DNA from: Endozoicomonas sp. 8E
GTDB taxonomy: Bacteria > Pseudomonadota > Gammaproteobacteria > Pseudomonadales > Endozoicomonadaceae
NCBI RefSeq assembly: GCF_032883915.1
Contig: NZ_CP120717.1
Span: 1,905,697 to 1,929,696, forward strand
Reading direction: 5' to 3'
Length of the DNA: 24,000 bases
Shown one piece after another: positions 1-14,437 of the stretch; the stretch's first letter is position 1; every line of letters begins with the position of its first letter. The notes below the pieces were generated by a model. The model searched no databases and was not told the DNA's origin. It saw nothing but the letters and a program-made list of their open reading frames with translations. Both the position numbers and the translations under genes were made by a program.

Positions 1-653
1 TGTATGTAGTCGTACCAGGCACCGTCTGGTGTGGTAATTTCGGTAACAGGCAGGATCTGGTAGTCATCCAGGTGGAGGATACCGGCAGTGATTTCGCGTC
101 CGGTAACAAACTCTTCAACCAATAGTTTTTCATCCATTTGCAGGCCGACTTTCAGCTTGCTCAAAAGGTCTTCATAACCCATGGCAAACTGGACGCCAAT
201 ACCGGAACCCTGACCGGGCGGCTTGATGATGACCTTATGCCCGAGAGATTCGATACAGTCGAGAGTAGCATCTTCATAGTTTTCGCTGCGATAGACGACT
301 CTGTCTCTGGCCATAGTGATGCCGACAGGCTGAAGCAAACGTTTGGTAACCACCTTATCCAGAGAACAGGCGCTTGCCAGGGCTCCGGAACCTACGTAAG
401 GAACGCCCATAATATCCAGAAGACCCTGCAGGCGGCCATCTTCACCATAGGGACCGTGGGCGACCGGGAAAGCAACGTCAACCTGTTGGGCTATGAGTTG
501 TTCCGGAAGCGTTTCGTCGAGCTCAAGGTGGATGGCTCTGCCATAATGTTCTTCCAGACAGGGGGAGATTCGGCTTGCGGAGAGTCTGGATACATCTGCT
601 TCGGGAGACAGGCCGCCGCAGATGACGGCAACCGTTTTGCTTTTGTCAGGCAT
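1..653 (-). CDS. ddl: D-alanine--D-alanine ligase family (ATP-grasp) protein, N-terminal part only; the gene continues past the left edge
   Basis: Not in the ORF track because it runs off the edge. Hand translation of the minus strand from ATG 653-651 gives MPDKSKTVAVICGGLSPEADVSRLSASRISPCLEEHYGRAIHLELDETLPEQLIAQQVDVAFPVAHGPYGEDGRLQGLLDIMGVPYVGSGALASACSL. This carries the Ddl N-terminal GG-S-E-VS and HG-GEDG-QG-L...PYVGSG motifs. Confidence 0.8.
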   Translation of the reverse strand, partial: MPDKSKTVAVICGGLSPEADVSRLSASRISPCLEEHYGRAIHLELDETLPEQLIAQQVDVAFPVAHGPYGEDGRLQGLLDIMGVPYVGSGALASACSLDKVVTKRLLQPVGITMARDRVVYRSENYEDATLDCIESLGHKVIIKPPGQGSGIGVQFAMGYEDLLSKLKVGLQMDEKLLVEEFVTGREITAGILHLDDYQILPVTEITTPDGAWYDYI

Positions 654-736: not shown

Positions 737-1453
737 TCAGACCCTTCCTCTGTCCAGTTTTACCCTGAGCCATTTAAAAAATTCCGGTGTCGCCTGCTTT
801 AGCCAGAGATGCTGGTATTTCAGGGTCAGCTTTAGCCAGCCTTTATCATGATACTTTCTCGCACTGGTACCCAGCCTGGTGCCACAGGTGTGGAGGAGGA
901 TCCTGTTTTGTCGGGCTTTCCAGACAAATACATGATCTTCACCGTAGAAAGTGTCGGTGGGATAACCCTTGAGGTCGAAAAATTGTGTCCGGCTGAGGCA
1001 AAACCCTTGATCTCCATAGGGGCATCCCAGAATATCGGAGCGGAATCTGGCTCCCCATTCGTTGATGGATAACCAGCAAGTGTCTTTGTCGTAAAACCAG
1101 AGATCAAAGTAGAGCAAGCGTCTGGGATATTGAGCAATGGCATTCAGTAAGCTTTGTACATTCTCTTTGTCCAGTATTGTGTCTGCATGCAGAAACCAGA
1201 GGTAATTCCCTGTAGCTTTCTCTGCGCCTGTATTGAGCTGACAGGCACGTCCCTGTTCTGCAGTACACCAAATCCACTTGAGGTGAAGCAAAGGGTCCGG
1301 AAGCTGATCCAGTTTGGCAGGCCGCTGATTGTCGTCATAGCCAACAAGGATGACCTCGTTACCCTCGGGAAGAAGACTCAGTTGTTCAAGAAGCGTTGGC
1401 CACTGCGGCTCACAAGGGCCCAGTGGCACGATTACAGATAGGCTGGGCATCAT
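737..1453 (-). CDS. Family-2 glycosyltransferase of the rSAM/selenodomain-associated type (TIGR04283-like, accession recalled)
   Basis: 238-aa ORF with LSVIVP at the N-terminus and GRACQLNTGAEKATGNYLWFLHADT, both typical of this GT2 subfamily. Its ATG shares nucleotide 1453 with the stop of the upstream phosphorylase gene (TAATG on the minus strand). Confidence 0.75.
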   Translation of the reverse strand: MMPSLSVIVPLGPCEPQWPTLLEQLSLLPEGNEVILVGYDDNQRPAKLDQLPDPLLHLKWIWCTAEQGRACQLNTGAEKATGNYLWFLHADTILDKENVQSLLNAIAQYPRRLLYFDLWFYDKDTCWLSINEWGARFRSDILGCPYGDQGFCLSRTQFFDLKGYPTDTFYGEDHVFVWKARQNRILLHTCGTRLGTSARKYHDKGWLKLTLKYQHLWLKQATPEFFKWLRVKLDRGRV

Positions 1454-2313
1454 TATCTTTGCAATACTTCCAGCAATGCTTTCTGCTTCTGGCCAAGCGT
1501 GTTCTCAGGAGAGAGTACTGCTGATTTCAGTGCGCTCCTGCACTGGCAATAATTGCTGTCATGAGGTGTTTCTTCCTGCTGTTTCAGATATTGTCCTAAC
1601 AATGCTTTAGCCAGTGTCAGGCTTTTGCCGTATCTGGCAATAATCTGCTCAACGCTGGCGTGGGCTGAAGGGTCCTCCTTCCAGCAATCGTAATCGGTGG
1701 CAATGGCGATTGTTGTATAACAAAGCTGAGCTTCCCGTGCCAGAAACGCTTCAGGCACATTAGTCATGCCGACAACATCGCACTGAGCAGCGTTTTTCAG
1801 GAACAGGCTTTCTGCACGGCTGCCCAGTCTTGGGCCGTCAACACAAGCATAGGTTTTCTCTTTATGCAGTCCTATTTTCGCCAGGTTAGCGGCATTGAGC
1901 AGTTGTTCTGATTGGTGATGACAGCTCGGTATTGCGGTGGAGACATGAGCGACAAGACCGTGACCAAAAAAGCTTTTTTCCCGGTGTCCTTTGACAAAGT
2001 CGAAGTACTGACTGACCAGCGATAATTCGCCCGGCGCAATCTCCTCCTGCAGACTGCCAACCGCAGAAAGGCCTATCACCCGGGTCGCACCCAGACTTTT
2101 TAATGCCCAGATATTGGCCCGATAATTGATTTCATGAGGCAGGAGTTCGTGGCCACTTCCATGTCTGGGCAGGAACAACAGCTTTTGTTGATTAAAAAGA
2201 CCTGTTGTTATTGGGCCTGAGTGAGGGCCATACGGTGTTTCAATGCTCTGCTCATTCAATACTTCAAGTCCATCCAGGCTGTAGATGCCTGTTCCGCCAA
2301 TCACTGCCAGCAT
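1453..2313 (-). CDS. S-methyl-5'-thioadenosine / purine nucleoside phosphorylase family (MTAP-like) enzyme
   Basis: 286-aa ORF with MLAVIGGTGIY, FLPRHGSGH, INYRANIWALKSLG, VVGMTNVPEAFLAREA and ATDYDCW. These are typical PNP/MTAP family motifs. Confidence 0.85.
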   Translation of the reverse strand: MLAVIGGTGIYSLDGLEVLNEQSIETPYGPHSGPITTGLFNQQKLLFLPRHGSGHELLPHEINYRANIWALKSLGATRVIGLSAVGSLQEEIAPGELSLVSQYFDFVKGHREKSFFGHGLVAHVSTAIPSCHHQSEQLLNAANLAKIGLHKEKTYACVDGPRLGSRAESLFLKNAAQCDVVGMTNVPEAFLAREAQLCYTTIAIATDYDCWKEDPSAHASVEQIIARYGKSLTLAKALLGQYLKQQEETPHDSNYCQCRSALKSAVLSPENTLGQKQKALLEVLQR

Positions 2314-2334
2314 TGGGTTTCCTTTTCATTGTGT

Positions 2335-2775
2335 TTAATCAGATATCTGTTGGATCAGGCTGGGAAGCTGATTGACCCACACCCTGATCTCGTCTCTTAC
2401 ACGACGATAGATTGCTAATGATTCTTCTTCTGTATCCACCGATTCAGTCAGTCGGGGAGGGTCATCAAAACACTTGAGTATAATCTGACCCTGCCTGGGT
2501 GTTGGACAGGTTTTATGGGCGTGATCACAAACGGTGATAATAAAGTCAAAATCTTCCTGACCCAGATCATTGAGGGTTTGTGACTGCTGTCGGCTGATAT
2601 CAACGCCAGCTTCCTGCATGACCCTGACTGCAGATGGGTTGAGCCCGTGGGCTTCAATGCCGGCAGAAAATGCTTCATAACCTGAAGGGAGCAGGTTTCT
2701 GGCCCAGCCTTCCGCCATCTGGCTGCGACAGGAGTTGCCAGTGCAGAGGAACAGTATCCGGATTTTAGCCATCAA
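2335..2775 (-). CDS. arsC: Arsenate reductase, LMW-PTP / thioredoxin-coupled type
   Basis: 146-aa ORF with the P-loop LCTGNSCRSQMAEG and a downstream Cys pair VCDHAHKTCP, spaced like Cys82/Cys89 of Gram-positive-type ArsC. Confidence 0.85.
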   Translation of the reverse strand: MMAKIRILFLCTGNSCRSQMAEGWARNLLPSGYEAFSAGIEAHGLNPSAVRVMQEAGVDISRQQSQTLNDLGQEDFDFIITVCDHAHKTCPTPRQGQIILKCFDDPPRLTESVDTEEESLAIYRRVRDEIRVWVNQLPSLIQQISD

Positions 2776-2799
2776 AATTTCCTGTTGTTGTGCAGACGA

Positions 2800-3729
2800 T
2801 CAGAGTTCGCTGCAGGAAGAGCCAAAAGCAAAACAGCTATAGCAACGGTGGTGTTTCATACTGATGGTTTCACTCAGGCTGGTTCGTAAACTCTTGCCAA
2901 GGTTGTACTCGGTATCGTCATCCACCAGTGTGCAGGCGTAAACCTGCATCTGCCCGTTTTGTTTGACCATCATTTTGGAAAACGCGCACATAAATTGACG
3001 ACGACTCTCTTCTGTCTGATAGCGGGTCATACAGTCTGTGCTGACGTGGGGAACATCCGGTAAAGAACCGGGTGGCAGGAAGTCCGGAAAGGCCACCTGT
3101 TTCAAGTTGACGGGCAAACCGTTCAGTTCAAAAAGATCTTTGAAGGCCTGTTCAACCACTGCCGTGTTTTCATCTTTTTCCATATGTCTGGCGACGGAGA
3201 TGTTAAAGCCTTTTTCATGCAGTAGTTTCAGTCCGGAAAGAGCGATGGCAAAGCTGTCTTCACCTCGTCCTGCATCATGTTGTTCAGCGTTTGGATGATC
3301 CAGACTGACTCTCAGGGATATGGGGTAGGGGTTACTGCTCAACCGGGCCAGCTCATCGAGCCTTTTGATCATGGGGGTCGTGCCATTAGTCAGAACCAGG
3401 CAGGGGCGATGCTGTGAGGCATAGTCCAGGATTCGAATAATGTCTTTAATGACAAAAGGCTCTCCTCCCGTAAAAGAGAACTGTTCAACCCCCAGTTCAA
3501 GTGATTCATCAATGTAGGGTTTTACCTCTGTCAAAGTGGGGGCATCCAGCCTCTTGCTGGCCGGACTTGAACCTTCCAGACAAAAGCCGCAGGAAAGATT
3601 GCAGCGGGTTCCGGTATGAAACCAGAGCTCTTTCAGTTGATGAGGTTTGATATAACCTCTGGGGCTGCCATCAGGTGTAAAGTGCCAATCCTGGCTTTTA
3701 GTGTCTGGAGGCGTTCCTGTCAGCAACAT
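2800..3729 (-). CDS. arsS: Radical SAM enzyme with a Cys-rich C-terminus, ArsS-like (arsenosugar biosynthesis radical SAM protein; TIGR04167-like, accession recalled)
   Basis: 309-aa ORF with the CX3CX2C motif CNLSCGFC, FSFTGGEP, and the C-terminal Cys-rich tail HHRCYSCFAFGSSCSEL. Its ATG (3729) overlaps the arsM stop (3720-3722) by 10 nt. Confidence 0.8.
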   Translation of the reverse strand: MLLTGTPPDTKSQDWHFTPDGSPRGYIKPHQLKELWFHTGTRCNLSCGFCLEGSSPASKRLDAPTLTEVKPYIDESLELGVEQFSFTGGEPFVIKDIIRILDYASQHRPCLVLTNGTTPMIKRLDELARLSSNPYPISLRVSLDHPNAEQHDAGRGEDSFAIALSGLKLLHEKGFNISVARHMEKDENTAVVEQAFKDLFELNGLPVNLKQVAFPDFLPPGSLPDVPHVSTDCMTRYQTEESRRQFMCAFSKMMVKQNGQMQVYACTLVDDDTEYNLGKSLRTSLSETISMKHHRCYSCFAFGSSCSEL

Positions 3730-4772
3730 GATCCATCACTTCCTTTGTTTTCATGGGTGGAAGATGAGAAGGGCAGCGAAGTTCCGCAGCCCTCAAAAAT
3801 GCCATAATGGGTGCTGAAGTTACCAATGAACTCGAAGTGTTCACGGAATCTTGTATCGTGCAGCATTCTCCAGGTGTTACCGCAAACCGGGAAAACCTTG
3901 CCTTTGGTAATAGGATGGTGCCCATCCAGGTTGAAGGTGTTGGGATGGTGATCAATTGTGCCTTTATAGATCACAGCCTGACCATAGTCCTCGCAATGAC
4001 TTTCCAGCTCTGGCAGTTTGAACAATCGATAAGTCGCCGAGAAAAACCGGATATCACCGACCTGGGTTTCAATCTTACGGTTATTGATGGTGACAGGTTT
4101 GTCTTCCACCAGTCTGGGGTCAGTGAAACCGGCCTTTTTAGCCAGATTCAAAAAGTCATTCCAATAAAGGGCACCGCTGAGACACTCTCCATAAAGTACC
4201 GGATCATCGACCAGTTCAGCAGGAATGCGGCGATCAGAATAGACGTCAGAGAAGTAAAGTTCGCCGCCTGGTTTCAGCAGGCGCCAAGCTTCTCTCAATA
4301 CTGCTTCCTTGTCCGGAGAAAGGTTGATCACGCAGTTTGAAATGATCATGTCGAAGCTGTTTTCTTTAAGGTTCAGTTGATCCAGTTTTTCAATATAGCC
4401 TTTATGGAATTCAGTGTTGGCTTTTGCGTAGCCGAATTTTTCCCGATGGTATTCGACATGTCGGTTGGCTATGGCAAGCTGTTCGTCTGTCATGTCGACA
4501 CCGACGACATAACCTTCTTCTCCGACCATTTGTGCCAGGGCATAACAGTCACGACCTGATCCAGAGCCAAGGTCGAGTATTCTGGCGCCTTGCAACTGCT
4601 CAGGGCAGACCAGTCCGCAGCCATAGTAATGGCTCAGAACCTCGTCATGAATATTGGCAAGGGCACTTTTCAGGTGGCGTGGCATGGCTGTATCGGTGCA
4701 GCAGGCATTGGTCTGCAGGTCATCGCTGCCCTGCAGAGTCTTGCCATAGTAATTCTGTACTGATTCATGCAT
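3720..4772 (-). CDS. arsM: Arsenite S-adenosylmethionine methyltransferase
   Basis: The ORF-track entry is 3720..4847. I place the start at ATG 4772 (MHESVQNYYGKTLQGSDDLQTNACC), with AAGGA about 10 nt upstream and an 8-nt overlap with the upstream stop. The conserved ArsM cysteines are present (NACC, YYGCG, ISNCVINL, GECLSGA), as are the SAM-binding LDLGSGSGRD and the C-terminal GSCC. The alternative start at 4847 would add 25 aa. Confidence 0.85.
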   Translation of the reverse strand: MHESVQNYYGKTLQGSDDLQTNACCTDTAMPRHLKSALANIHDEVLSHYYGCGLVCPEQLQGARILDLGSGSGRDCYALAQMVGEEGYVVGVDMTDEQLAIANRHVEYHREKFGYAKANTEFHKGYIEKLDQLNLKENSFDMIISNCVINLSPDKEAVLREAWRLLKPGGELYFSDVYSDRRIPAELVDDPVLYGECLSGALYWNDFLNLAKKAGFTDPRLVEDKPVTINNRKIETQVGDIRFFSATYRLFKLPELESHCEDYGQAVIYKGTIDHHPNTFNLDGHHPITKGKVFPVCGNTWRMLHDTRFREHFEFIGNFSTHYGIFEGCGTSLPFSSSTHENKGSDGSCC

Positions 4773-5472
4773 GAGAGGTTTTTCCTTGCTTGAAAATAGA
4801 TTGAATATGTTTTGCCAGTGCCCTTCGGGCAGGTCGATTGTCGCCATTCAGTTCGGGGAGCACTCCGAGCAAATCTTTTAAATGATCAACATCCTGGCCA
4901 GAAGGCGCGTAGCCGACAGATAAGCGGGATTGACGACAAAGACTGGTCAGTGACACTCCCAGAGAGCCTGTGCTCCAGGGCAGCTCTGAAAGGTCAGGCC
5001 AATGAGTTCGGTTGGCCATGATGGTGACGCCGCCATCACTGGCCTTGCTGAATACTGTGTCGTAGGTCTTGAGCCTTTGTGCCGTGTCCGAGAGGTCTTT
5101 GAGGCTGAGTGTCGGACAGTCACTGCCAATATAGATGAGGTTTTCTTTTCCCTGAAGTCTCAGCTCATTGTCGATGTGGTTCAGTCTCTCACCCAGGTTG
5201 CCAGAGCCCTGGGGTACGACCAGGTTGTCCTTGCCCTCCAGAAGCTGACTGGCCCAGTCACAGTCGCTTTCATGAGAGGGAGCAATAACTTTTTGGCCAG
5301 GCCACTCTGATAAATCTTCCAGTGCACAGGCTAGCAGGTGTTGAGCAACAGTGAGCGCCTGTTCTGTTCCCATGTCAGCAGCAAGGCGTTGTTTTCCCTG
5401 GTGTAAGGCGGGCTTTTTGCACACAAGTATCAATGTTGCCTTTTTTATCAGACTCGGTTCGTTGCTTATCAT
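4765..5472 (-). CDS. DUF2064 / CofC-like 'transferase 1, rSAM/selenodomain-associated' protein (TIGR04282-like, accession recalled)
   Basis: 235-aa ORF with LILVCKKPALHQGKQRLA, QGSGNLGERL, IGSDCPTL, ASDGGVTIM, LPWSTGSL and QDVDHLKDL. These match the DUF2064 pattern (KaP-G-vKtRL, QG-GDLGeRm, iGtDcP, DGGYyl, WST, DvD). It is the first gene of the operon. Confidence 0.7.
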   Translation of the reverse strand: MISNEPSLIKKATLILVCKKPALHQGKQRLAADMGTEQALTVAQHLLACALEDLSEWPGQKVIAPSHESDCDWASQLLEGKDNLVVPQGSGNLGERLNHIDNELRLQGKENLIYIGSDCPTLSLKDLSDTAQRLKTYDTVFSKASDGGVTIMANRTHWPDLSELPWSTGSLGVSLTSLCRQSRLSVGYAPSGQDVDHLKDLLGVLPELNGDNRPARRALAKHIQSIFKQGKTSHA

Positions 5473-5770
5473 TATTCTTTGATTTTAATTTCGCTAAGTG
5501 TTCGTAAGAGCCAGACTCCAGCCTGCTACTGCATAACTATACTGCGGAAACAGTTATTTGGATTCAAGGCTGTGATTATTTTTTAAAAGCTCTCTTTGCG
5601 GTTGTCTGCTGGTTAACCTGCCGGGTGTTGTTCTGCTGACAGGGAAAGCTCTGTGATTTGAGTCAGTATAAATCCGGAAAGAGCAATCAAGCATAATACT
5701 GGTGTCAATTCAGGTCGGGCTTTATAATCCTCTCCCAAATTTTTTATTGAATTTCCCCTGGTAACTTTTT

Positions 5771-6862
5771 ATGGGCTTTAAATGTGGCATCGTTGGTCTG
5801 CCCAACGTCGGCAAATCAACACTGTTCAATGCTTTGACCAAGGCAGGGATTGATGCAGAGAACTTCCCTTTCTGTACTATCGAGCCAAATGCGGGTGTTG
5901 TGGCTATGCCCGATCCGCGTCTGAATAAGCTGGCTGAGATCGTTAAGCCTGAACGTGTGTTGCCTACTACCATGGAGTTTGTCGATATTGCCGGTCTGGT
6001 AGAAGGTGCCTCCAGGGGTGAAGGTCTGGGCAACAAATTTCTGGCTAATATTCGTGAGACAGATGCTATTGCCCACGTAGTACGTTGCTTCGAGAATGAT
6101 AATGTGATTCATGTGGCCAATAAAATTGATCCGGCGGCGGATATTGACATTATCAATATCGAGCTGGCCATGGCGGATCTGGAAAGCTGTGAAAAACAGC
6201 TACAGCGAGTCACTCGTGTCGCCAAGAGCGGCGACAAGGATGCCAAAGCCCAGAAAGCCCTGCTGGAAAGAATTGTTCCCCATCTGGAAGAAGGCCTCCC
6301 TGTTCGCTCCATGGCAATGACCGATGAAGAGCAGAAACTGACCAAAACATTCCACCTTCTGACGACAAAACCCACCATGTACATTGCTAATGTTGATGAA
6401 GATGGTTTTGAAGATAACCCCTATCTGGATGTTGTCCGTGGCATTGCCCAGAGCGAGGGCTCTGTTGTGGTAACAGTCTGCAACAAGCTGGAAGCTGAGA
6501 TTGCTGAGCTCGAAGATGAAGAGCGAGATGAATTTCTGGCCGATCTGGGTATGGAAGAGCCGGGTCTGGATCGTGTGATCAGGGGTGGTTATGAACTGCT
6601 TGGACTGCAGACGTATTTCACTGCCGGAGTTAAAGAAGTGCGTGCCTGGACTGTGAAGATCGGCGCGACGGCTCCTCAGGCTGCAGGTGTGATTCACACT
6701 GACTTTGAGCGTGGTTTCATTCGTGCGGAAGTGACGGCTTATGATGAGTTTGTTCAGTACAACGGTGAACAGGGTGCCAAGGAAGCAGGTCGTTTGAGAG
6801 TGGAAGGCAAGGACTACATCGTCAAAGATGGCGATGTTATGCATTTCCGTTTCAACGTCTGA
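5771..6862 (+). CDS. ychF: Redox-regulated ATPase YchF (Obg-like GTPase family)
   Basis: 363-aa ORF with the N-terminus [23 protein letters not shown] (P-loop), [10 protein letters not shown], and a C-terminal TGS-like end ...[15 protein letters not shown]. Confidence 0.95.
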
Positions 6863-6870
6863 TTCAGTTG

Positions 6871-6901
6871 GGGCTGTCTGATCAGATAGCCCTATCCTTT
6901 T
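6871..6901 (+). terminator. Rho-independent terminator of ychF
   Basis: GGGCTGTCTGA/TCAGATAGCCC is a near-perfect palindrome (one G-T pair) at 6871-6892, followed by TATCCTTTT. Confidence 0.65.
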
Positions 6902-6987
6902 AAACTCCGGGTCATTAACTTCTGGAGAGCCATTGAATGTTGCCACCGACATTGCTCTTGTCCAGGAGGGTTAAAAACAGTTCGCAG

Positions 6988-7023
6988 AAATCTATTATAA
7001 TCTAAAACTATCTTATAAAATCT
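6988..7023 (+). repeat. Left sub-terminal block: four 10-bp-phased AAATCT-like units
   Basis: AAATCT ATTA TAATCT AAAA CTATCT TATA AAATCT. TCT recurs at 6991, 7001, 7011 and 7021, which is one helical turn apart. It lies immediately upstream of the tnpA remnant. Confidence 0.6.
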
Positions 7024-7028
7024 CAAGC

Positions 7029-7328
7029 ATGGATAAGTGATTACTGAAGATAGGTGAGGCAGCTCGTTTGCATGGTACAGACCCAGTAACACTACGAAAA
7101 TCGGAAAGTACAGGTGAGCTGCTTCCTGCCAGAAAGACCAAAGTTGGAACTTGTTACTACGACGTGTCTGAATTGATGGGCTACAGTAACGAAGCTGTGC
7201 CTATGCTTTGCTATTGCAGAGTATCCAGTCACGACCAAAAGCCAGACTTAGACAGGCAGCAAGAGTTACTGGAAGCCTACTGTTCTATAGAAGGTTGGCG
7301 AACTCAGGTTATACGAAAAAATGCTTGA
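7029..7328 (+). pseudogene. tnpA: IS607-type serine recombinase transposase TnpA, disrupted and truncated
   Basis: In the frame of track ORF 7068..7328, reading upstream gives ATG(7029) GAT AAG TGA(7038), then LLKIGEAARLHGTDPVTLRKSESTGELLPARKTKVGTCYYD (MerR-like HTH). This is followed by LCYCRVSSHDQKPDLDRQQELLEAYC (serine recombinase catalytic motif). The frame ends at 7328 after about 100 codons, roughly half the usual length. Confidence 0.7.
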
Positions 7329-7339
7329 GACTTTGCGAG

Positions 7340-8503
7340 ATGTTGTTAGCTCACAAGATTGAACTCAGACCGACAAAACAACAAGCCGATTATCTTGATA
7401 GGGCTTGTGGTTCCCGTCGTCATGCGTTCAATCAACTGTTAGCCCATTTCAATCAAGAAGGCGTTAAATGGTCAAAGAAGGCTGCGAATGAAAAATACCA
7501 AGAACTCAGGCTTGAGTTTCCCTGGTATGCCGAAGTCAGCCAACGTGTCACCAGGAACACAATCGACGATCTTCATGACGCCTTTACTCACTTCTTTCGT
7601 CGGGTGAAGAAAGGAGAAAAAGCAGGTTATCCAAGATTCAAGAAGCGAGGACTACACGACAGTTTTTCTCTCAGAGAAAAAACCAAGTTCGATGTTGATG
7701 GCAGAACACTTCGCATTGAGAAACTGAAAACCCGCATCAAGATGCGCCAGGAGCTGAGATTTACAGGAACACCCTGTCAGGTGACGATCAGTAAGCGAGC
7801 CGGAAAGTATTTCGCTTCTATTTTGGTAGACACTGAGGATTACGAACCAAAAGCACAAAGCAATGAGTCTGTAGGCGTTGATTTTGGCGTCAAAGATTTA
7901 GCTATTTGTTCGAATGGCAAAACCTTTGCTGCTAATCAGAAACTGAAGGGCTCTCTGAAACGCCTTAGCAGTAAACAGAGAGCGTTAAGCCGCAAAACAA
8001 AGGGAAGCAACCGCTACGCGAAAGCCAAGCGAGCGGTTGCCAAACTGCATTACCGGATAAGTAACCAGCGATCAGCCGCAATACATGAGGTAAGTGATTA
8101 TCTGACTTCAAGATTCAAAATAATCACCCTCGAAAATCTGAATGTCAAAGGCATGGTAAAAAACCGCAAACTGGCAAGAGCAATCAGTGACGCAGGTTTC
8201 GGTAAGCTGAGAGAACTTGTTGAATACAAGGCAGAGCTGAGAGGATGCCAGGTTGTGATTGCAGATCGGTTCTTTCCCAGCTCGAAGAAGTGTGCGGTTC
8301 ATACTTGCGACTACGTAAATGACAATCTTACTCTGTCTGATCGTGAGTGGCGGTGTCCAAAATGTAAAACTCTGCATGATAGGGATTACAGTGCGAGTTT
8401 TAACCTTGATAATTATGGTCGAGACACGTTACAGCTCGACCCTAAACCCTACGCAAGAGTGGAGTCAGACACGATTCGTCGTGCATCCATGTCGACGGCG
8501 TAG
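7340..8503 (+). CDS. tnpB: TnpB (OrfB_IS605/IS607-type RNA-guided endonuclease family)
   Basis: Track ORF 7208..8503 trimmed to ATG 7340, which gives MLLAHKIELRPTKQQADYLDRACG, a typical TnpB N-terminus. The RuvC-like residues are all present: D in VGVDFGVKDLA, E in IITLENLNVKGM, a Cys-rich zinc-finger region CAVHTC...CPKC, and D in HDRDYSASFNL. Confidence 0.85.
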   Translation: MLLAHKIELRPTKQQADYLDRACGSRRHAFNQLLAHFNQEGVKWSKKAANEKYQELRLEFPWYAEVSQRVTRNTIDDLHDAFTHFFRRVKKGEKAGYPRFKKRGLHDSFSLREKTKFDVDGRTLRIEKLKTRIKMRQELRFTGTPCQVTISKRAGKYFASILVDTEDYEPKAQSNESVGVDFGVKDLAICSNGKTFAANQKLKGSLKRLSSKQRALSRKTKGSNRYAKAKRAVAKLHYRISNQRSAAIHEVSDYLTSRFKIITLENLNVKGMVKNRKLARAISDAGFGKLRELVEYKAELRGCQVVIADRFFPSSKKCAVHTCDYVNDNLTLSDREWRCPKCKTLHDRDYSASFNLDNYGRDTLQLDPKPYARVESDTIRRASMSTA

Positions 8504-8537
8504 ATAAGTCTACATAATTACAGATTATGTTAGATTT
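8502..8537 (-). repeat. Right sub-terminal block: inverted copy of the four phased units
   Basis: The reverse complement reads AAATCT AACA TAATCT GTAA TTATGT AGAC TTATCT. By hand alignment, 24 of 36 positions match the left block, and 20 of the outer 26. On the plus strand, AGAT recurs at 8502, 8522 and 8532, with ACAT at 8512. The block overlaps the tnpB stop codon. Confidence 0.6.
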
Positions 8538-8679
8538 TTAGTAGCGGTATCAATGGAAGCATTAACGGTCCGTTTTGAAAAAATAATAAGGCTTTGAATA
8601 AGGTGCATTCCAGTGCTCGCAGAAATACGAAACAGGGGTAGGGGTTTTCTGAAAGTTCCTAAAAAAGCCGCTTAAACAG

Positions 8680-8708
8680 TTGACAGGACAGCGTTAAATC
8701 CTGAAAAT
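8680..8708 (+). promoter_or_regulatory. Sigma70-type promoter of the tRNA operon
   Basis: TTGACA (8680-8685), a 17-nt spacer, then GAAAAT (8703-8708), followed by the GC-rich discriminator GCGCACC. An A-rich stretch (AAAAAA, 8661-8666) lies upstream. The first tRNA starts at 8726. Confidence 0.6.
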
Positions 8709-8725
8709 GCGCACCATCTTTCGGC

Positions 8726-8802
8726 GGCTAGGTAGCTCAGTTGGTTAGAGCACAGCACTCATAATGCTGGGGTCGGCAGTTCGAATCTGCCCCTAGCTAC
8801 CA
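8726..8802 (+). tRNA. tRNA-Met (CAT), elongator type, copy 1
   Basis: 77 nt, folded by hand. Acceptor GGCTAGG/CCTAGCT (G1-U72 wobble), D arm GCTC-AGTTGGTTA-GAGC, anticodon arm CAGCA-CTCATAA-TGCTG, T arm GGCAG-TTCGAAT-CTGCC, CCA encoded. It closely resembles the E. coli metT-type elongator tRNA. Confidence 0.9.
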
Positions 8803-8892
8803 CTATTCAGGAGCTTGCAGGCAGGCGACTGCGAACGTAGGGTCGAAAGTGCACACGGAATGTCCATGTCCTGTATAGCATTTCGTATTTGC

Positions 8893-8967
8893 TGGGGTGT
8901 CGCCAAGCGGTAAGGCAGCAGGTTTTGATCCTGCCATGCGGGGGTTCGAATCCCTCCACCCCAGCCA
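8893..8967 (+). tRNA. tRNA-Gln (TTG), copy 1
   Basis: 75 nt. Acceptor TGGGGTG/CACCCCA (U1-A72), D arm GCC-AAGCGGTAA-GGC, anticodon arm GCAGG-TTTTGAT-CCTGC, T arm GGGGG-TTCGAAT-CCCTC, discriminator G, CCA encoded. Confidence 0.9.
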
Positions 8968-8975
8968 CATAAAAT

Positions 8976-9052
8976 GGCTAGGTAGCTCAGTTGGTTAGAG
9001 CACAGCACTCATAATGCTGGGGTCGGCAGTTCGAGTCTGCCCCTAGCTACCA
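8976..9052 (+). tRNA. tRNA-Met (CAT), elongator type, copy 2
   Basis: Identical to copy 1 except for one T-loop base (TTCGAGT versus TTCGAAT). Confidence 0.9.
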
Positions 9053-9058
9053 TTTTAC

Positions 9059-9133
9059 TGGGGTGTCGCCAAGCGGTAAGGCAGCAGGTTTTGATCCTGC
9101 CATGCGGGGGTTCGAATCCCTCCACCCCAGCCA
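9059..9133 (+). tRNA. tRNA-Gln (TTG), copy 2
   Basis: Same sequence as copy 1 by eye. It starts 6 nt after tRNA-Met copy 2. Confidence 0.9.
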
Positions 9134-9142
9134 TCTTTCTGA

Positions 9143-9171
9143 AGCCCGACTGAAACAGGTTGGGCTTTTTC
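9143..9171 (+). terminator. Rho-independent terminator of the tRNA operon
   Basis: AGCCCGAC (9143-9150), loop TGAAACAG, GTTGGGCT (9159-9166), giving an 8-bp stem with one G-T pair, followed by TTTTT. Confidence 0.8.
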
Positions 9172-9440
9172 GTTGTCAGTGACTTTTAAAATCTCAATGT
9201 ACATGTAATGCCCAACTTGTTTTGCTCAGGAAGGTGATCTTCGGGGGGCAGATGCCGTTCTGAGCATGAAGTTATTTGTATGTATGTTTATCTGTTGTCA
9301 TTGCGGATAGCCAAGCACTTAAAACATCAAGATAATCTCATTCGTGTTTGGATTCGATCCAATAAAAAAAGACATTTCATCATTAAAGAAAAAGCGTTTG
9401 GGTTATTTTCTGGACGACAAATACCTGAAGTATCATAAAG

Positions 9441-10232
9441 TTGAGGCCTGTTTTGGATTTTGTACTTACTCTTGATTGGGGGTTTTTGCTGTTTTTTGTT
9501 GCGATTCTGGCTGGTTTTGTTGACTCCATTGCAGGCGGCGGCGGATTGATTACAGTCCCCGCGCTTCTGGCGGTGGGGCTTTCTCCGGCACAGGCTCTGG
9601 CAACCAATAAATTACAGTCAACAGGCGGCTCTTTCTCTGCCAGTGTTTATTTTATTCGAAGAGGGCTGGTGAATCTCAGGGAAATGCGTTTTGCCATTTT
9701 CATGACCTTTGTTGGCAGTGCCGCAGGCACGATTCTGGTTCAGTTGATTGATGCTTCGGTTTTGAAGCAGATTATTCCCTTCCTGTTATTGGGTATAGCC
9801 GCTTACTTTGTTCTCTCCCCCAGTGTCCGAAATACTGAAGCTTCTACTGCCAGAATGAGCCTGACCGCTTTTGCCTGTTCAGCAGGGTTGGGAGTCGGCT
9901 TTTATGATGGCTTCTTCGGCCCGGGCACGGGCTCTTTCTTTGCCATAGCCTTTGTCAGCCTGCTTGGTTATTCCCTGACAATGGCGACGGCTCATACCAA
10001 AGTTCTGAACTGTACCAGTAATGTGGCCTCCCTGCTGTTCTTTATATTGGGTGGTCAGGTTGTCTGGGCTGTAGGGGGAATCATGCTGATAGGTCAGTTC
10101 ATCGGCGCCAGACTGGGATCGAGAATGGTTGTGAAGCGTGGTCAGCAGATTATTCGTCCCATGATCGTCGTTATTTCACTGGTCATGACCGGCAAACTCA
10201 TGTGGGACGAATACGGACATTTGCTGTTTTGA
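9441..10232 (+). CDS. yfcA: TauE/SafE family membrane transporter (YfcA-like)
   Basis: 263-aa ORF with FVDSIAGGGGLITVPALLAVGLSPAQALATNKLQS, FYDGFFGPGTGSF and GARLGSRMVVKRGQQIIRPM, which closely parallel E. coli YfcA. The start is uncertain. The track uses TTG 9441, but TTG 9453 sits 6 nt after GAGG (9443-9446). Confidence 0.85.
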   Translation: MRPVLDFVLTLDWGFLLFFVAILAGFVDSIAGGGGLITVPALLAVGLSPAQALATNKLQSTGGSFSASVYFIRRGLVNLREMRFAIFMTFVGSAAGTILVQLIDASVLKQIIPFLLLGIAAYFVLSPSVRNTEASTARMSLTAFACSAGLGVGFYDGFFGPGTGSFFAIAFVSLLGYSLTMATAHTKVLNCTSNVASLLFFILGGQVVWAVGGIMLIGQFIGARLGSRMVVKRGQQIIRPMIVVISLVMTGKLMWDEYGHLLF

Positions 10233-11904: not shown

Positions 11905-12453
11905 TTATTTATAGACTTTCAGCGAGTCAACAGTCAGGGAGTAAAGGGTTTCAGTGTACGTTGACTGAGTGGTCTCAACATGCAGGGTTCCAACCAGCCA
12001 ATAAGGGGTGTAGCCCGCTTCCTCGACTTTGATGCCTTTTTCGTTATTCTTGAATTTCACATAAATAGTTTGGTTAGGCGGCGGTGCTGGTACGTGGATG
12101 CAGGCACCCATCGTTGGTACCAGCAACAGCTCCGTCGCTCTCTGGTTTTTATCGAGGTTGAGTGGCACGAGGTATCCGGGTATTTTTACCGTGCGTTTGT
12201 CCAGTCTTGTAACGGGTGTCTGGCCGAGCTTATCCAGATAGTAGATGACATCAGCTTTGCTCATCTCTCCGGCCTGATAACTGTCAACGACTTTTTGATC
12301 CGGTGCAGGCATCAGTTCGTCCCAAGTGATCTCTATGGCTTCTGCTTGGGTTGCTGGCTTTTCCAGCGGCTTGGCTTGAACGGCGACTACTGGCAGCAGA
12401 GCCAGTAGCGTTGTCAGTATCAGGGATTTTCCTGTTTTCATAATGATTTTCAT
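11905..12453 (-). CDS. zrgD: DUF3299 periplasmic protein (ZrgD / PA4066-like)
   Basis: 182-aa ORF with a signal peptide (LLALLPVVAVQA) and the DUF3299 signature VPTMGACIHVPAPPPNQTIYV. The ORF begins 1 nt after the permease stop. Confidence 0.75.
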   Translation of the reverse strand: MKIIMKTGKSLILTTLLALLPVVAVQAKPLEKPATQAEAIEITWDELMPAPDQKVVDSYQAGEMSKADVIYYLDKLGQTPVTRLDKRTVKIPGYLVPLNLDKNQRATELLLVPTMGACIHVPAPPPNQTIYVKFKNNEKGIKVEEAGYTPYWLVGTLHVETTQSTYTETLYSLTVDSLKVYK

Positions 12454-12454
12454 C

Positions 12455-13717
12455 TTAGACTCTTATAGTCAGGCCATCGGCAAGAGAGTTTTTGTAGGCG
12501 CGCCAGGCCGGGATTATGCCCAAAACAATGGCGCAGACAATGATCATTCCGGCCAGTGACCATTCAAAGGTGCCCGGAGCACTGATGGCCAGGTGCAGTC
12601 CCAGGATTTGTTGCACAACGGGCTGAATAGCGAAAAGCAGTCCATACAGTATAAGGAAGCCCAGAAGGGTTCCGGACACCGCATAAACGACAGATTCAGT
12701 GATCATCAGCGTGAAGATATGGATGGGCCTTGCACCGGCAGAGCGGAGAATGGCCATCTCACGGCGCCTTTCATTAAGAGAGGTGAGAATCGTAGTCAGC
12801 ATGCCCATCAGACCTGCCAGGACCACCATGACGGAAACTGCAAGTAATGCCTTTTCTGCGGTGCCTACCAGTTGCCAGAGCTCCTGAAGAGCAACACCGG
12901 GCAGAATGGCGGTCATGGCTTCCTGCCGGTATTCATTGACTTTCCTCTGGTAACGGAAGGCGGCAGTACGGGATTTCAGACCAACAAAATAGGCGGTAAC
13001 ACTGGTGGGCTGAAGATTCATGGCCTGAGCCTCTGCAGCGGACACTGAGAATGCGGCAATGGGTGGTGCACCGCTTACCCAATCGATGTGCAGGGCTTCG
13101 ATCCCCTCAAGAGAGATCAGAATCACTCTGTCCGAAGGCGTACCCGTTGGCTTGAGAATGCCTGAAACCTTAAAAGGCTTATCATCGTGAGACAGCAGAC
13201 TCTTACTTTCTACGCCATGGTTCAGAACAATGCTGTCACCGACTTTATAGCCAAGGCTGGCAGCGACTTCAGATCCAAGTACAGCGTCGTACAAAGCGTT
13301 GAAAGGTTTGCCCTTGGACAGTTGCAGTGATTCGTTGTCGCCGTATCGAAAATGATTGAAGATGTCATGGGAGGTGCCCATGACCCGATAGCCATGGTGG
13401 GAGTCACCCAGGGAAATGGGAACAGACCAGGCAACATCCGGGGCAGACGTCAGGTCCTGATAAGTCTCCCAGGAGATATTGTTGGTGGCATTGCCAATGT
13501 GGAAAACAGAATACAACAGAAGATTCATAGAGCTGCTTCTGGCCCCCACAATCAAATCCGTACCTGACACGGTGTTGGTAAAGCTGTTTTTGGCTTCGAC
13601 CCTGATACGTTCAACCCCCAATAGCAGGGCTACGCTGACAGCAATAGAGAATATAGTCAGCAAGGCGGTTGTTTTTCGGTTTTTAAGGCTCTTCAAAGCC
13701 AGACTTAAAATCGACAT
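12455..13717 (-). CDS. zrgC: ABC transporter permease, FtsX/MacB-like (ZrgC / PA4065-like)
   Basis: 420-aa ORF with N-terminus LKSLKNRKTTALLTIFSIAVSVALLLGV, a large periplasmic loop, and a C-terminal FtsX-type helix bundle (ERRREMAILRSAGARP). Its ATG overlaps the ATPase stop (TGATG at 13715-13719). Confidence 0.8.
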   Translation of the reverse strand: MSILSLALKSLKNRKTTALLTIFSIAVSVALLLGVERIRVEAKNSFTNTVSGTDLIVGARSSSMNLLLYSVFHIGNATNNISWETYQDLTSAPDVAWSVPISLGDSHHGYRVMGTSHDIFNHFRYGDNESLQLSKGKPFNALYDAVLGSEVAASLGYKVGDSIVLNHGVESKSLLSHDDKPFKVSGILKPTGTPSDRVILISLEGIEALHIDWVSGAPPIAAFSVSAAEAQAMNLQPTSVTAYFVGLKSRTAAFRYQRKVNEYRQEAMTAILPGVALQELWQLVGTAEKALLAVSVMVVLAGLMGMLTTILTSLNERRREMAILRSAGARPIHIFTLMITESVVYAVSGTLLGFLILYGLLFAIQPVVQQILGLHLAISAPGTFEWSLAGMIIVCAIVLGIIPAWRAYKNSLADGLTIRV

Positions 13718-14436
13718 CAGTCCACCTCTGTTGCTTTGCTGGCCCGGTTGATTTCATTGAGCGCAATGCTGCGATCAAATAACGATTCAAGGCCACGGTC
13801 GTGGCTGACAAATAGCAGGGTGTTGCCAACTATTTCACATTCTGCGAACAGCAGATTGATGAAGGCTTCCCGGGTATCTGTGTCCAGTGCTGAAGTAGGC
13901 TCGTCGGCAATGATCAGATCAGGCTTGCCAATTAAAGCTCTGGCGGCGGCTACTCGCTGTTGCTGTCCGATACTCAGTTCTGTGACCGGACGATGGAGTA
14001 CTGAGTCGTCCAGTTCCAGATGTTTAAGAAGACGTCTTGCTTCATCCTGCTCACTGCCAGCAATACTGGCGAGATTGCTTTTGCGCTCTATGGCAAAGCC
14101 CAGAGGCAGAGTGACGTTCTCTATTACAGAGAGATAGGGAATCAGATTAAACATCTGGAAGATAAAGCCAATATGATCAGCACGGAAGCGATCGCGCTGC
14201 ACCGGGGAAAAACGACTAATGTCGTTCCCCAGCACTTTGACCTGTCCCCGCTCCGGTGTAATGACGCCGCCGAGCAGTCCCAATAGAGTGGTTTTACCGG
14301 AACCCGACGGGCCGCGGACAAAAACCTTTTCGCCTCTGGATACAGTCAGTTCAGGAATATCCAGAACAGGTATTCCTGCTTTCCAGCTGAACTCAACAGC
14401 TGTGAGCTCAATAACTTGAGAGCGGGAGTCAGTCAT
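13717..14436 (-). CDS. zrgB: ABC transporter ATP-binding protein (ZrgB / PA4064-like)
   Basis: 239-aa ORF with Walker A GPSGSGKTT, signature LSIGQQQRVAAARAL and Walker B LIIADEPTSALD. Confidence 0.85.
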   Translation of the reverse strand: MTDSRSQVIELTAVEFSWKAGIPVLDIPELTVSRGEKVFVRGPSGSGKTTLLGLLGGVITPERGQVKVLGNDISRFSPVQRDRFRADHIGFIFQMFNLIPYLSVIENVTLPLGFAIERKSNLASIAGSEQDEARRLLKHLELDDSVLHRPVTELSIGQQQRVAAARALIGKPDLIIADEPTSALDTDTREAFINLLFAECEIVGNTLLFVSHDRGLESLFDRSIALNEINRASKATEVD

Positions 14437-14437
14437 C

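Follow-up and report, generated by a model that had tools for sequence, protein, structure and literature searches.

We analyzed a 24-kb stretch of the genome of Endozoicomonas sp. 8E (24,000 nucleotides; hereafter, the window) in which six co-directional open reading frames (ORFs) on the minus strand, at positions 737-5472, form a candidate operon for arsenic metabolism. In the order of transcription, they encode a DUF2064/TIGR04282-like protein (4765-5472, 235 amino acids), the As(III) S-adenosylmethionine (SAM) methyltransferase ArsM (3720-4772, 350 amino acids from the ATG at 4772), a radical SAM enzyme of an unnamed family (2800-3729, 309 amino acids; hereafter, rSAM), a thioredoxin-type arsenate reductase ArsC resembling that of pI258, with the fold of low-molecular-weight protein tyrosine phosphatases (2335-2775, 146 amino acids), a phosphorylase of the methylthioadenosine phosphorylase (MTAP) family (1453-2313, 286 amino acids), and a small soluble glycosyltransferase of family 2 (GT2) that is similar to TIGR04283 and is encoded by the last gene (737-1453, 238 amino acids). 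The genes overlap by 8 nt (DUF2064/ArsM), 10 nt (ArsM/rSAM), and 1 nt (MTAP/GT2) or are separated by 24 nt (rSAM/ArsC) and 21 nt (ArsC/MTAP). The first in-frame ATG of arsM is located at 4847, and the ATG at 4772 yields the 8-nt overlap while still including the whole conserved ArsM domain. The ORF coordinates were confirmed, and all of them, as well as the junctions, match those of a preliminary description made from the sequence of the window, which had read the six genes as a possible complete arsenosugar route around ArsM and an ArsS-like radical SAM enzyme. No arsR, arsB/acr3, or arsA was found among the ORFs of the window, in line with the proposal of that description that the operon is biosynthetic rather than devoted to efflux.

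We assigned the six proteins to families using Pfam and the NCBIfam models with their curated cutoffs, and the broad assignments hold (PF00535, PF01048, PF01451, PF04055, Methyltransf_31, and PF09837). ArsM aligned with the arsenite methyltransferase of Protein Data Bank (PDB) entry 5EVJ over residues 4-334 (370 bits, E of 1e-109) and scored 291 bits against entries 4FR0/4FS8. Cys24/25, Cys52, Cys147, and Cys197, the conserved cysteines of the CmArsM literature, occur in the contexts ACC, YGCG, SNCV, and GECL, respectively. The protein thus shows the three-domain architecture and the four arsenic-binding-cysteine contexts of the ArsM family, and the earlier statement that all conserved cysteines are present holds. 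Its top NCBIfam match was PRK11873 (181.6 bits versus a cutoff of 263), and its score on the arsinothricin ArsM model was 149.7 bits, far under the cutoff of 500. ArsC scored 63.7 bits on PF01451 and 137.2 bits on its best model, TIGR02691 (cutoff of 174.3). The fold and the cysteine triad expected of a thioredoxin-type enzyme are present in ArsC, with Cys11 in the CX5R motif followed by Cys83 and Cys90, presumably equivalent to Cys10, Cys82, and Cys89 in the numbering of pI258 ArsC. In Endozoicomonas sp. ALC020, arsC (L001:7927-8218) carries an internal frameshifting deletion of 202 nt that removes the Cys83/Cys90 region, and ArsC is therefore dispensable; the other five genes of the ALC020 operon are intact and 94-99% identical to those of the window. 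Judged from the ArsM match, the cysteine motifs, and the thioredoxin-type ArsC in the same translationally coupled operon, the link of the operon to arsenic is direct.

In the rSAM, the radical SAM motif CX3CX2C reads CNLSCGFC (residues 43-50), and the C-terminal tail, CYSCFAFGSSC (residues 296-306), is rich in cysteine. These motifs had been noticed before, as had GRACQLN (residue 68) and FLHADT (residue 87) in GT2, and all of them were found. The accompanying assignment of the rSAM to ArsS did not stand. On the ArsS model TIGR04167, the protein scored 46.8 bits against a cutoff of 300, only residues 27-178 could be aligned, and the score was in the same range as that of MoaA or PqqE. Its top NCBIfam match was the uninformative Rv1681 family (114.6 bits versus a cutoff of 380). 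DUF3641 (PF12345) is absent from the rSAM of the window, in which Pfam gave PF04055 only, and the same holds for all 120 relatives of the rSAM among the matches listed, whereas PF12345 is present in all 120 ArsS relatives among the matches listed and in the ArsS of Stutzerimonas. Two true ArsS proteins were used as controls: a protein from a Hymenobacter plasmid, which was named ArsS by the NCBI pipeline PGAP and scored 439.3 bits on TIGR04167, and a protein from Stutzerimonas stutzeri with PF04055 and PF12345. The rSAM is 19-23% identical to these two proteins, with significant alignment limited to the radical SAM core, and only 141 radical SAM core columns aligned in a full-length profile-profile comparison. 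The low TIGR04167 score, the missing DUF3641, and the alignment of the core only place the rSAM outside the ArsS family, so that its identity with ArsS was ruled out by hidden Markov model (HMM) score, Pfam architecture, and pairwise and profile comparisons. The preliminary description had named such an outcome as a refutation of its hypothesis, and on that count the finding speaks against it. The Hymenobacter control came from a search of a plasmid collection that returned just three GT2 relatives; no cluster of the window type was found among these three.

Sequence comparisons instead place the rSAM in a distinct, tight, and highly conserved family that has no name. Column identity averages 69% among sixteen members, each from a different genus, and nine cysteines are invariant in this set, namely C43, C47, and C50 together with C233, C248, C266, C296, C299, and C306. 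Public labels of the members are limited to "radical SAM protein" or generic names of the MoaA/AslB type. Relatives were found in at least 585 stretches of the species-representative genome collection, and a scan of 1.84 billion representatives clustered at 50% identity gave 69 rSAM clusters at E ≤ 1e-30. The AlphaFold2 model of the rSAM had a predicted local distance difference test (pLDDT) score of 81 and a predicted template modeling score (pTM) of 0.83, and the solved folds nearest to it were SkfB, BlsE, MoaA, SuiB, and DesII, all of them radical SAM enzymes that carry auxiliary domains at the C terminus. A sequence search of the PDB for a close solved relative returned generic core matches only (SkfB, AbmM, and BlsE) and no ArsS structure.

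When the C-terminal halves of the rSAM and ArsS were aligned, C248, C266, C296, C299, and C306 of the rSAM were colinear with C282, C297, C333, C336, and C344 of ArsS, respectively. The aligned tails are HRCYSCFA-FGSSC in the rSAM and QHCYGCTAGAGSSC in ArsS; the rSAM tail CYSCFAFGSSC resembles the ArsS tail CYGCTAGAGSSC, and both end in CYxC...GSSC. The hhalign match between the two halves was weak and not significant (probability of 12.5%, E of 0.0023), and we therefore rejected it as proof of homology to ArsS and kept the colinearity as suggestive only. According to a selenoproteome review, the selenocysteine motif of selenoprotein ArsS is "GxxU" (PMC13188914). This form would fit the last cysteine of GSSC.

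The genomic surroundings of the family were examined in 80 genome loci of rSAM relatives, mostly from marine gammaproteobacteria and some from alphaproteobacteria, and counts were made on the 60 loci in which the rSAM gene was flanked by 3.5 kb or more in each direction. The gene order was DUF2064-(ArsM)-rSAM-(ArsC)-(MTAP)-GT2, and the genera with the cluster included Endozoicomonas, Vibrio, Enterovibrio, Psychromonas, Paraglaciecola, Colwellia, Psychrobium, and Shewanella, as well as Neptuniibacter, Motiliproteus, Amphritea, Marinobacterium, Aliikangiella, Kistimonas, and Emcibacter. DUF2064 was next to the rSAM in 52 of the 60 loci, and a GT2 of either type was next to it in 54. MTAP was found near the rSAM in 34 loci, ArsM as its immediate upstream neighbor in 29, and ArsC nearby in 18. 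On these counts, DUF2064, the rSAM, and GT2 constitute the conserved core, and ArsM, MTAP, and ArsC are frequent accessories. The exact six-gene order also occurs in Endozoicomonas, Enterovibrio, and Motiliproteus and on a Vibrio plasmid, so the expectation that the order would be conserved was borne out in several genera, but only the trio proved to be a core. The plasmid (unnamed2 of Vibrio sp. nBUS_14, NZ_CP179209.1, 72 kb; locus L006) carries the six genes at 5257-9931, which suggests horizontal mobility. The same order was seen in dozens of genomes outside the genus Endozoicomonas, so the arrangement is not a chance one. The cysS and glnS genes that adjoin the cluster in loci of the Marinobacterium/Amphritea type were considered and rejected as members of the system because they reflect housekeeping synteny.

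Several loci connect this family with ArsS. In Stutzerimonas (L083), a DUF2064 protein ~48-49% identical to that of the window adjoins a true ArsS, and equally similar DUF2064 proteins adjoin members of the new rSAM family in Nitrosomonas, Methylotenera, a metagenome-assembled genome of Fibrobacteria, and an unclassified metagenome contig. The rSAM proteins of these four loci are 54-59% identical to that of the window, and the methyltransferase encoded alongside in Nitrosomonas and Methylotenera shares 63% identity with the ArsM of the window. The rSAM also shares with ArsS the genomic association with ArsM and with partners of the TIGR04282 and TIGR04283 types. By these sequence comparisons, the new family occupies the genomic slot of ArsS, and its predicted role, by analogy, is probably the ArsS-like adenosylation of dimethyl-As(III). 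The arsenosugar idea survives in a modified form because a non-ArsS rSAM family sits in this slot and is fused to ArsM. Fusions were found in both orders: P0362 is an ArsM::rSAM protein with 46% and 51% identity to the proteins of the window, and P0364 is an rSAM::ArsM protein with 48% and 50% identity. The latter is encoded without interruption by 673 codons on each of two independent metagenome contigs, L090 (3720-5741, 7908-9194) and L091 (4533-6554), where a compact form of the cluster comprises DUF547, rSAM::ArsM (673 amino acids), VTT, a pyridine-nucleotide disulfide reductase, and a DUF2064::GT2 fusion (428 amino acids). A further protein, P0402, joins DUF2064 to the rSAM. Other members of the rSAM family are fused to a metallophosphoesterase (P0391 and P0410), an HD/YfbR-like 5'-deoxynucleotidase domain (P0419), or a Pyr_redox domain (P0436).

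Additional genes recur around the rSAM. A protein of ~710 amino acids in which a VTT/DedA domain is fused to a MerA/lipoamide-dehydrogenase-like disulfide reductase accompanies it in 21 of the 60 loci (for example, L026:9443-11581, L085:10417-12567, and L087:9506-11638), and DUF547 accompanies it in 11; the window contains neither. DUF547 was also observed near the TIGR04283-type GT2 on the Hymenobacter (L081) and Roseomonas (L082) plasmids, with VTT and FAD-oxidoreductase genes near the Roseomonas one. Loci of the Colwellia, Psychrobium, Shewanella, and Aliikangiella types lack the terminal TIGR04283-like GT2 (L015, L018, L019, L022-L024, L030, L032, L047, and L048). In these loci, a GT2 resembling AglJ/dolichyl-phosphate-hexose transferases is located ~1-5 kb upstream of DUF2064, DUF547 is present in most, and a GT87-like membrane glycosyltransferase is present in several, sometimes with a FAD/NapH-like protein. 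These features hint at a polyprenyl-phosphate-linked route in those lineages.

DUF2064 scored 64.1 versus 25.8 bits on PF09837 and 112.5 bits on TIGR04282, for which the cutoff is 134. Its orthologs in E. numazuensis and E. arenosclerae, which are 81% and 71% identical to it, carry the NCBI name of the TIGR04282 family. The AlphaFold2 model (pLDDT of 93.7) was compared with solved structures using Foldseek. The top match was 3CGX, an uncharacterized DUF2064 structure with the generic label "putative nucleotide-diphospho-sugar transferase", followed by CofC, FbiD (Rv2983), and 3-phospho-D-glycerate guanylyltransferase. Further matches included a MobA-like protein, CMP-Kdo synthetases, GlmU, IspD, and glucose-1-phosphate cytidylyltransferase, and no entry named as a glycosyltransferase was among the top 50. 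Despite the NCBIfam name "glycosyltransferase", the Foldseek matches therefore led us to read DUF2064 as a nucleotidyltransferase, and the modeled structure is of the CofC/FbiD type rather than that of a glycosyltransferase. The enzymes CofC, FbiD, and 3-phospho-D-glycerate guanylyltransferase of coenzyme F420 synthesis are the closest characterized folds (template modeling score of 0.62-0.78, Foldseek E of 1e-10 to 1e-9), and this likeness suggests a reaction in which a nucleoside triphosphate (NTP) and a phospho-substrate give a nucleoside monophosphate-phospho-substrate and pyrophosphate. However, DUF2064 is only 15-17% identical to them, scores 21 bits on the F420_cofC model (cutoff of 105), and lies in a genomic context unrelated to F420. 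On the basis of the model, we propose that DUF2064 may act as an NTP:arsenoribose-1-phosphate nucleotidyltransferase.

In GT2, only the soluble-type catalytic domain of the family was matched (PF00535, 37 bits). Its top NCBIfam model was TIGR04283, with 156.7 bits, which is under the cutoff of 182, compared to 230.8 bits for the Hymenobacter control, and it is 25-30% identical to the canonical TIGR04283 proteins of the true ArsS loci L081 and L083. The DUF2064::GT2 fusion, together with the nucleotidyltransferase relatives of DUF2064, makes the two proteins look like consecutive steps, that is, synthesis of a nucleoside diphosphate (NDP)-sugar followed by transfer. NCBIfam names both TIGR04282 and TIGR04283 "arsenosugar biosynthesis glycosyltransferase", and the assignment of DUF2064 and GT2 to an arsenosugar pathway is therefore not new. 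The preliminary description had held that the two families were defined by co-occurrence with no demonstrated chemistry; our literature searches likewise found no paper giving the chemistry of these partners.

The phosphorylase scored 110.9 bits on PF01048 and remained under every MTAP equivalog cutoff (e.g., 249.7 versus 274.85 bits on TIGR01694). Over its full length, it is similar to the MTAPII type of Sulfolobus (215 bits for PDB entry 1V4N and 207 bits for 2A8Y), with which it shares the catalytic residues and a C-terminal CxC motif. The residues that bind phosphate, ribose, and base are conserved, including the equivalents of human T18, R60, H61, H65, A94, M196, T197, D220, and D222. The equivalent of human T93 is a serine in all 41 cluster-linked copies, and in the same 41 of 41 copies the motif GPRFS is changed to GPRLG, so that leucine and glycine stand at the positions of human F177 and S178. 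According to the structural literature, the phenylalanine of GPRFS lines the pocket for the 5'-methylthio group (the 5'-substituent), and a smaller residue at this position would suit the bulkier dimethylarsinoyl group. With its catalytic residues retained and this invariant change, the enzyme looks adapted. Unlike the Sulfolobus enzyme, the MTAP of the window has GPRLG and is encoded in an arsenic operon, not with methionine-salvage genes. Its proposed role would be phosphorolysis of 5'-deoxy-5'-dimethylarsinoyl-adenosine.

Three characterized or annotated systems resemble the operon in part, and the closest is the ArsM-ArsS pair together with its TIGR04282 and TIGR04283 partners. In the ArsM-ArsS pair of Synechocystis sp. 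PCC 6803 (TIGR04167, PF04055 and PF12345), ArsM likewise directly adjoins a radical SAM enzyme with the CX3CX2C motif, and the rSAM has a similar CYxC...GSSC tail and the same partner families. The reaction that we propose for the rSAM is the published one of this system, in which DMAs(III), the dimethyl-As(III) species, and SAM give 5'-deoxy-5'-dimethylarsinoyl-adenosine (DDMAA). In contrast to the Synechocystis pair, the rSAM of the window is not ArsS, the operon adds ArsC, MTAP, DUF2064, and GT2, and the host is a heterotrophic, marine, animal-associated gammaproteobacterium rather than a cyanobacterium. The NCBIfam triad of TIGR04167, TIGR04282, and TIGR04283, as found in Stutzerimonas stutzeri (L083) and on the Hymenobacter plasmid (L081), similarly has DUF2064 and a small GT2 adjoining a radical SAM enzyme, and loci of both kinds have DUF547 and VTT/disulfide-reductase genes as recurrent accessories. 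The radical SAM enzyme of the window, however, is from another family, its DUF2064 and GT2 score just under the cutoffs, and the two canonical loci that were inspected have no adjacent MTAP, ArsM, or ArsC. In the arsinothricin system of Burkholderia gladioli, the radical SAM enzyme ArsL forms a C-As bond alongside ArsM, as is proposed for the rSAM; unlike the rSAM, ArsL works in a noncanonical way, with the 3-amino-3-carboxypropyl group of SAM as the group transferred, and the arsinothricin cluster lacks MTAP, DUF2064, and GT2.

Taking these data together, we lean slightly toward the view that the six-gene operon makes a dimethylarsinoyl-riboside of the arsenosugar type and is built around a non-ArsS rSAM that does the job of ArsS. 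In the proposed pathway, ArsC would reduce arsenate to arsenite, and ArsM would methylate arsenite twice to give dimethyl-As(III). The rSAM would then cleave SAM reductively and place the 5'-deoxyadenosyl radical on arsenic, giving 5'-deoxy-5'-dimethylarsinoyl-adenosine by analogy with ArsS, which adenosylates DMAs(III) to DDMAA (PMC13598754, PMC12159101, and PMC8552651). With phosphate, the MTAP paralog would remove adenine to leave 5-deoxy-5-dimethylarsinoyl-alpha-D-ribose-1-phosphate, which DUF2064 would condense with an NTP to an NDP-arsenoribose, an NDP-alpha-sugar. Finally, GT2 would attach the arsenoribosyl group to glycerol, a glycerol phosphate, or another acceptor. GT2 enzymes invert the anomeric configuration, and this transfer would give a beta-riboside, the linkage of natural arsenosugars. 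A more specific version of this proposal holds that the As-C5' bond is made by a second radical SAM family whose relationship to ArsS is very distant at most, that this family is the version of marine heterotrophs and animal symbionts (such as Endozoicomonas, Vibrionaceae, Alteromonadales, and Oceanospirillales), found also in Nitrosomonas and Methylotenera, and that MTAP, DUF2064, and GT2 together with it make up the whole of the hitherto unassigned late pathway via NDP-arsenoribose; this version is plausible, although we stop somewhat short of calling it probable. The route of the preliminary description is partly supported: late-step roles of MTAP, DUF2064, and GT2 are backed by fold and fusion evidence, and the radical SAM step is altered.

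Several observations weigh against this proposal. The rSAM falls outside the ArsS family by score and architecture, as described above, and our literature searches found no publication on this rSAM family or operon type. GT2, DUF2064, ArsC, MTAP, and ArsM found the best models expected for them, and all six proteins score below the NCBIfam curated (equivalog) cutoffs of their best models. The C-terminal resemblance to ArsS could be merely that of a shared twitch/SPASM-like cluster domain. ArsM or ArsC is nearby in just 30 of the 60 loci; in the others, the core trio may lack specificity for arsenic, or arsM may be located at another site of the genome. The weight of the MTAP pocket change depends on the comparison with the human sequence and on the structural literature, and the role of MTAP could instead be to remove 5'-deoxyadenosine, which ordinary radical SAM turnover releases as an inhibitory by-product. 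DUF2064, for its part, could activate a phospho-compound on the acceptor side, like CofC and FbiD, rather than arsenoribose.

Some of these points are shared by an explanation in which an organoarsenical is made but the rSAM is an ordinary hydrogen-abstracting enzyme that acts on a sugar, a nucleotide sugar, or a methylarsenical, MTAP destroys 5'-deoxyadenosine, and DUF2064 and GT2 build an ordinary nucleotide-activated glycoside, so that the product is not a 5-deoxy-5-arsinoyl riboside. The position of the rSAM outside the ArsS family fits this explanation, as do its closest solved folds (SkfB, BlsE, MoaA, SuiB, and DesII), all of which, to our knowledge, use the 5'-deoxyadenosyl radical for hydrogen abstraction. 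Salvage of 5'-deoxyadenosine by MTAP-family enzymes is known (PMC8102628). We nevertheless regard this explanation as unlikely. DUF2064 and GT2 accompany true ArsS in some loci and the rSAM family in others, an interchangeability that argues for the same overall chemistry in both, and the ArsM fusions in both orders point to arsenic as the direct substrate of the rSAM. The C-terminal cysteine pattern is colinear with that of ArsS, and the invariant pocket change in MTAP would be needless for 5'-deoxyadenosine because this compound is smaller than methylthioadenosine.

An alternative that differs from the proposed pathway in the last step alone would transfer arsenoribose to a lipid or envelope acceptor (diacylglycerol, phospholipid, polyprenyl phosphate, or a cell-surface glycan), giving arsenosugar lipids or an arsenic-decorated envelope. 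Membrane components around related loci are consistent with it: an MsbA-related ATP-binding cassette (ABC) exporter (TIGR02204, 834 bits, above the cutoff) is co-directional downstream in 8 loci, the VTT/DedA::disulfide reductase protein occurs in 21 of the 60 loci, the AglJ/dolichyl-phosphate-hexose-transferase-like GT2 and the GT87-like membrane glycosyltransferase occur in 13 loci each and together in 8, and L088 has an MptA/B-family::GT2 fusion. None of these components is present in the operon of the window or its flanks, however, and the GT2 of the window, with 238 residues, has the soluble-type domain only and is of the TIGR04283 rather than the dolichyl-phosphate type, which leaves this alternative quite improbable for the window. 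We give the least credence, and very little, to a detoxification operon of ArsC and ArsM with sugar-metabolism and rSAM genes as chance neighbors, or to a system for another metalloid such as selenium, tellurium, or antimony. It is true that ArsC and ArsM are classical resistance genes, that half of the related loci carry DUF2064-rSAM-GT2 without adjacent ArsM or ArsC, and that the ArsS family was first noticed through selenocysteine-containing members. Yet the genes are joined by overlaps of 1, 8, and 10 nt and gaps of 21 and 24 nt, their order is conserved across many genera and a plasmid, and the rSAM::ArsM, DUF2064::rSAM, and DUF2064::GT2 fusions tie the parts together. Moreover, the reductase is of an arsenate-specific type, the window has no efflux pump or ArsR, and arsC is decaying in the sister strain ALC020 while the rest of the operon is intact.

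The operon is flanked by genes on both sides. Upstream, an intergenic region of 298 nt without an ORF (5473-5770), presumed to contain the operon promoter, separates DUF2064 from the divergent ychF (5771-6862, plus strand). On the minus strand of this region, the consensus scan detected no site of the sigma-70 type, Rfam families gave no match in it, and the promoter/terminator scan and Rfam together yielded no regulatory element for the operon. Downstream, a co-directional D-alanine--D-alanine ligase-like gene (ddl; 1-652, minus strand) runs off the left end of the window; its start lies 83 nt 3' of the GT2 stop, with no convincing terminator between them. In Endozoicomonas sp. ALC020, ddl is followed by pth and rplY, and the arsenic operon, with ddl, thus lies between ychF and pth, which are usual neighbors in gammaproteobacteria. 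No clear island signature was seen in the base composition. The rSAM of the window shares 98-99% identity with proteins encoded by Endozoicomonas sp. ALB032 and ALC020, in agreement with the heterotroph-like gammaproteobacterial context recognized earlier. Beyond ychF, an IS605/IS607-type element (7068-8503) precedes a tRNA cluster. It encodes a TnpB (7208-8503) with OrfB_IS605 and Cas12f1-like TNB domains and, ahead of it, a short ORF (7068-7328) that by eye resembles an N-terminal fragment of a serine-recombinase TnpA; the matching interval in ALC020 is ~1.5 kb shorter. The tRNA genes, Met(CAT)-Gln(TTG)-Met(CAT)-Gln(TTG), stand in tandem at 8726-9133 on the plus strand. Farther along, positions 11905-15145 of the minus strand contain a likely zinc-uptake cluster (DUF3299, a MacB/FtsX-type ABC permease, an ABC ATPase, and a His-rich ZrgA-family protein), and positions 17826-19262 encode a Lys/Glu/Gln-rich protein of 478 residues with no Pfam match in a locally AT-rich stretch (GC of 0.43).

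Arsenosugars rank among the major arsenic species of marine organisms. In the accessible literature, only ArsM and ArsS, the first two arsenosugar enzymes, are described as characterized (PMC13598754, PMC12159101, and PMC8552651). New here are the replacement of ArsS by another family, the nucleotidyltransferase fold modeled for DUF2064, a dedicated and altered MTAP, the fusion evidence tying the components together, and the heterotrophic marine bacteria and animal symbionts as hosts. The operon offers chemically coherent candidates for the steps from dimethylarsinoyl-adenosine to the glycoside in one clonable unit of 4.7 kb, and a phosphorylase, a nucleotidyltransferase, and an inverting glycosyltransferase together would explain the beta-riboside linkage. 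Surveys based on ArsS only would miss the organisms with this rSAM family, which is represented in at least 585 species-representative genomes. Organoarsenicals credited to algae may come from bacteria that live in symbiosis with corals, sponges, and mollusks, and if the proposed pathway is true, the arsenosugars of marine food webs would derive from heterotrophic bacteria in addition to algae and cyanobacteria.

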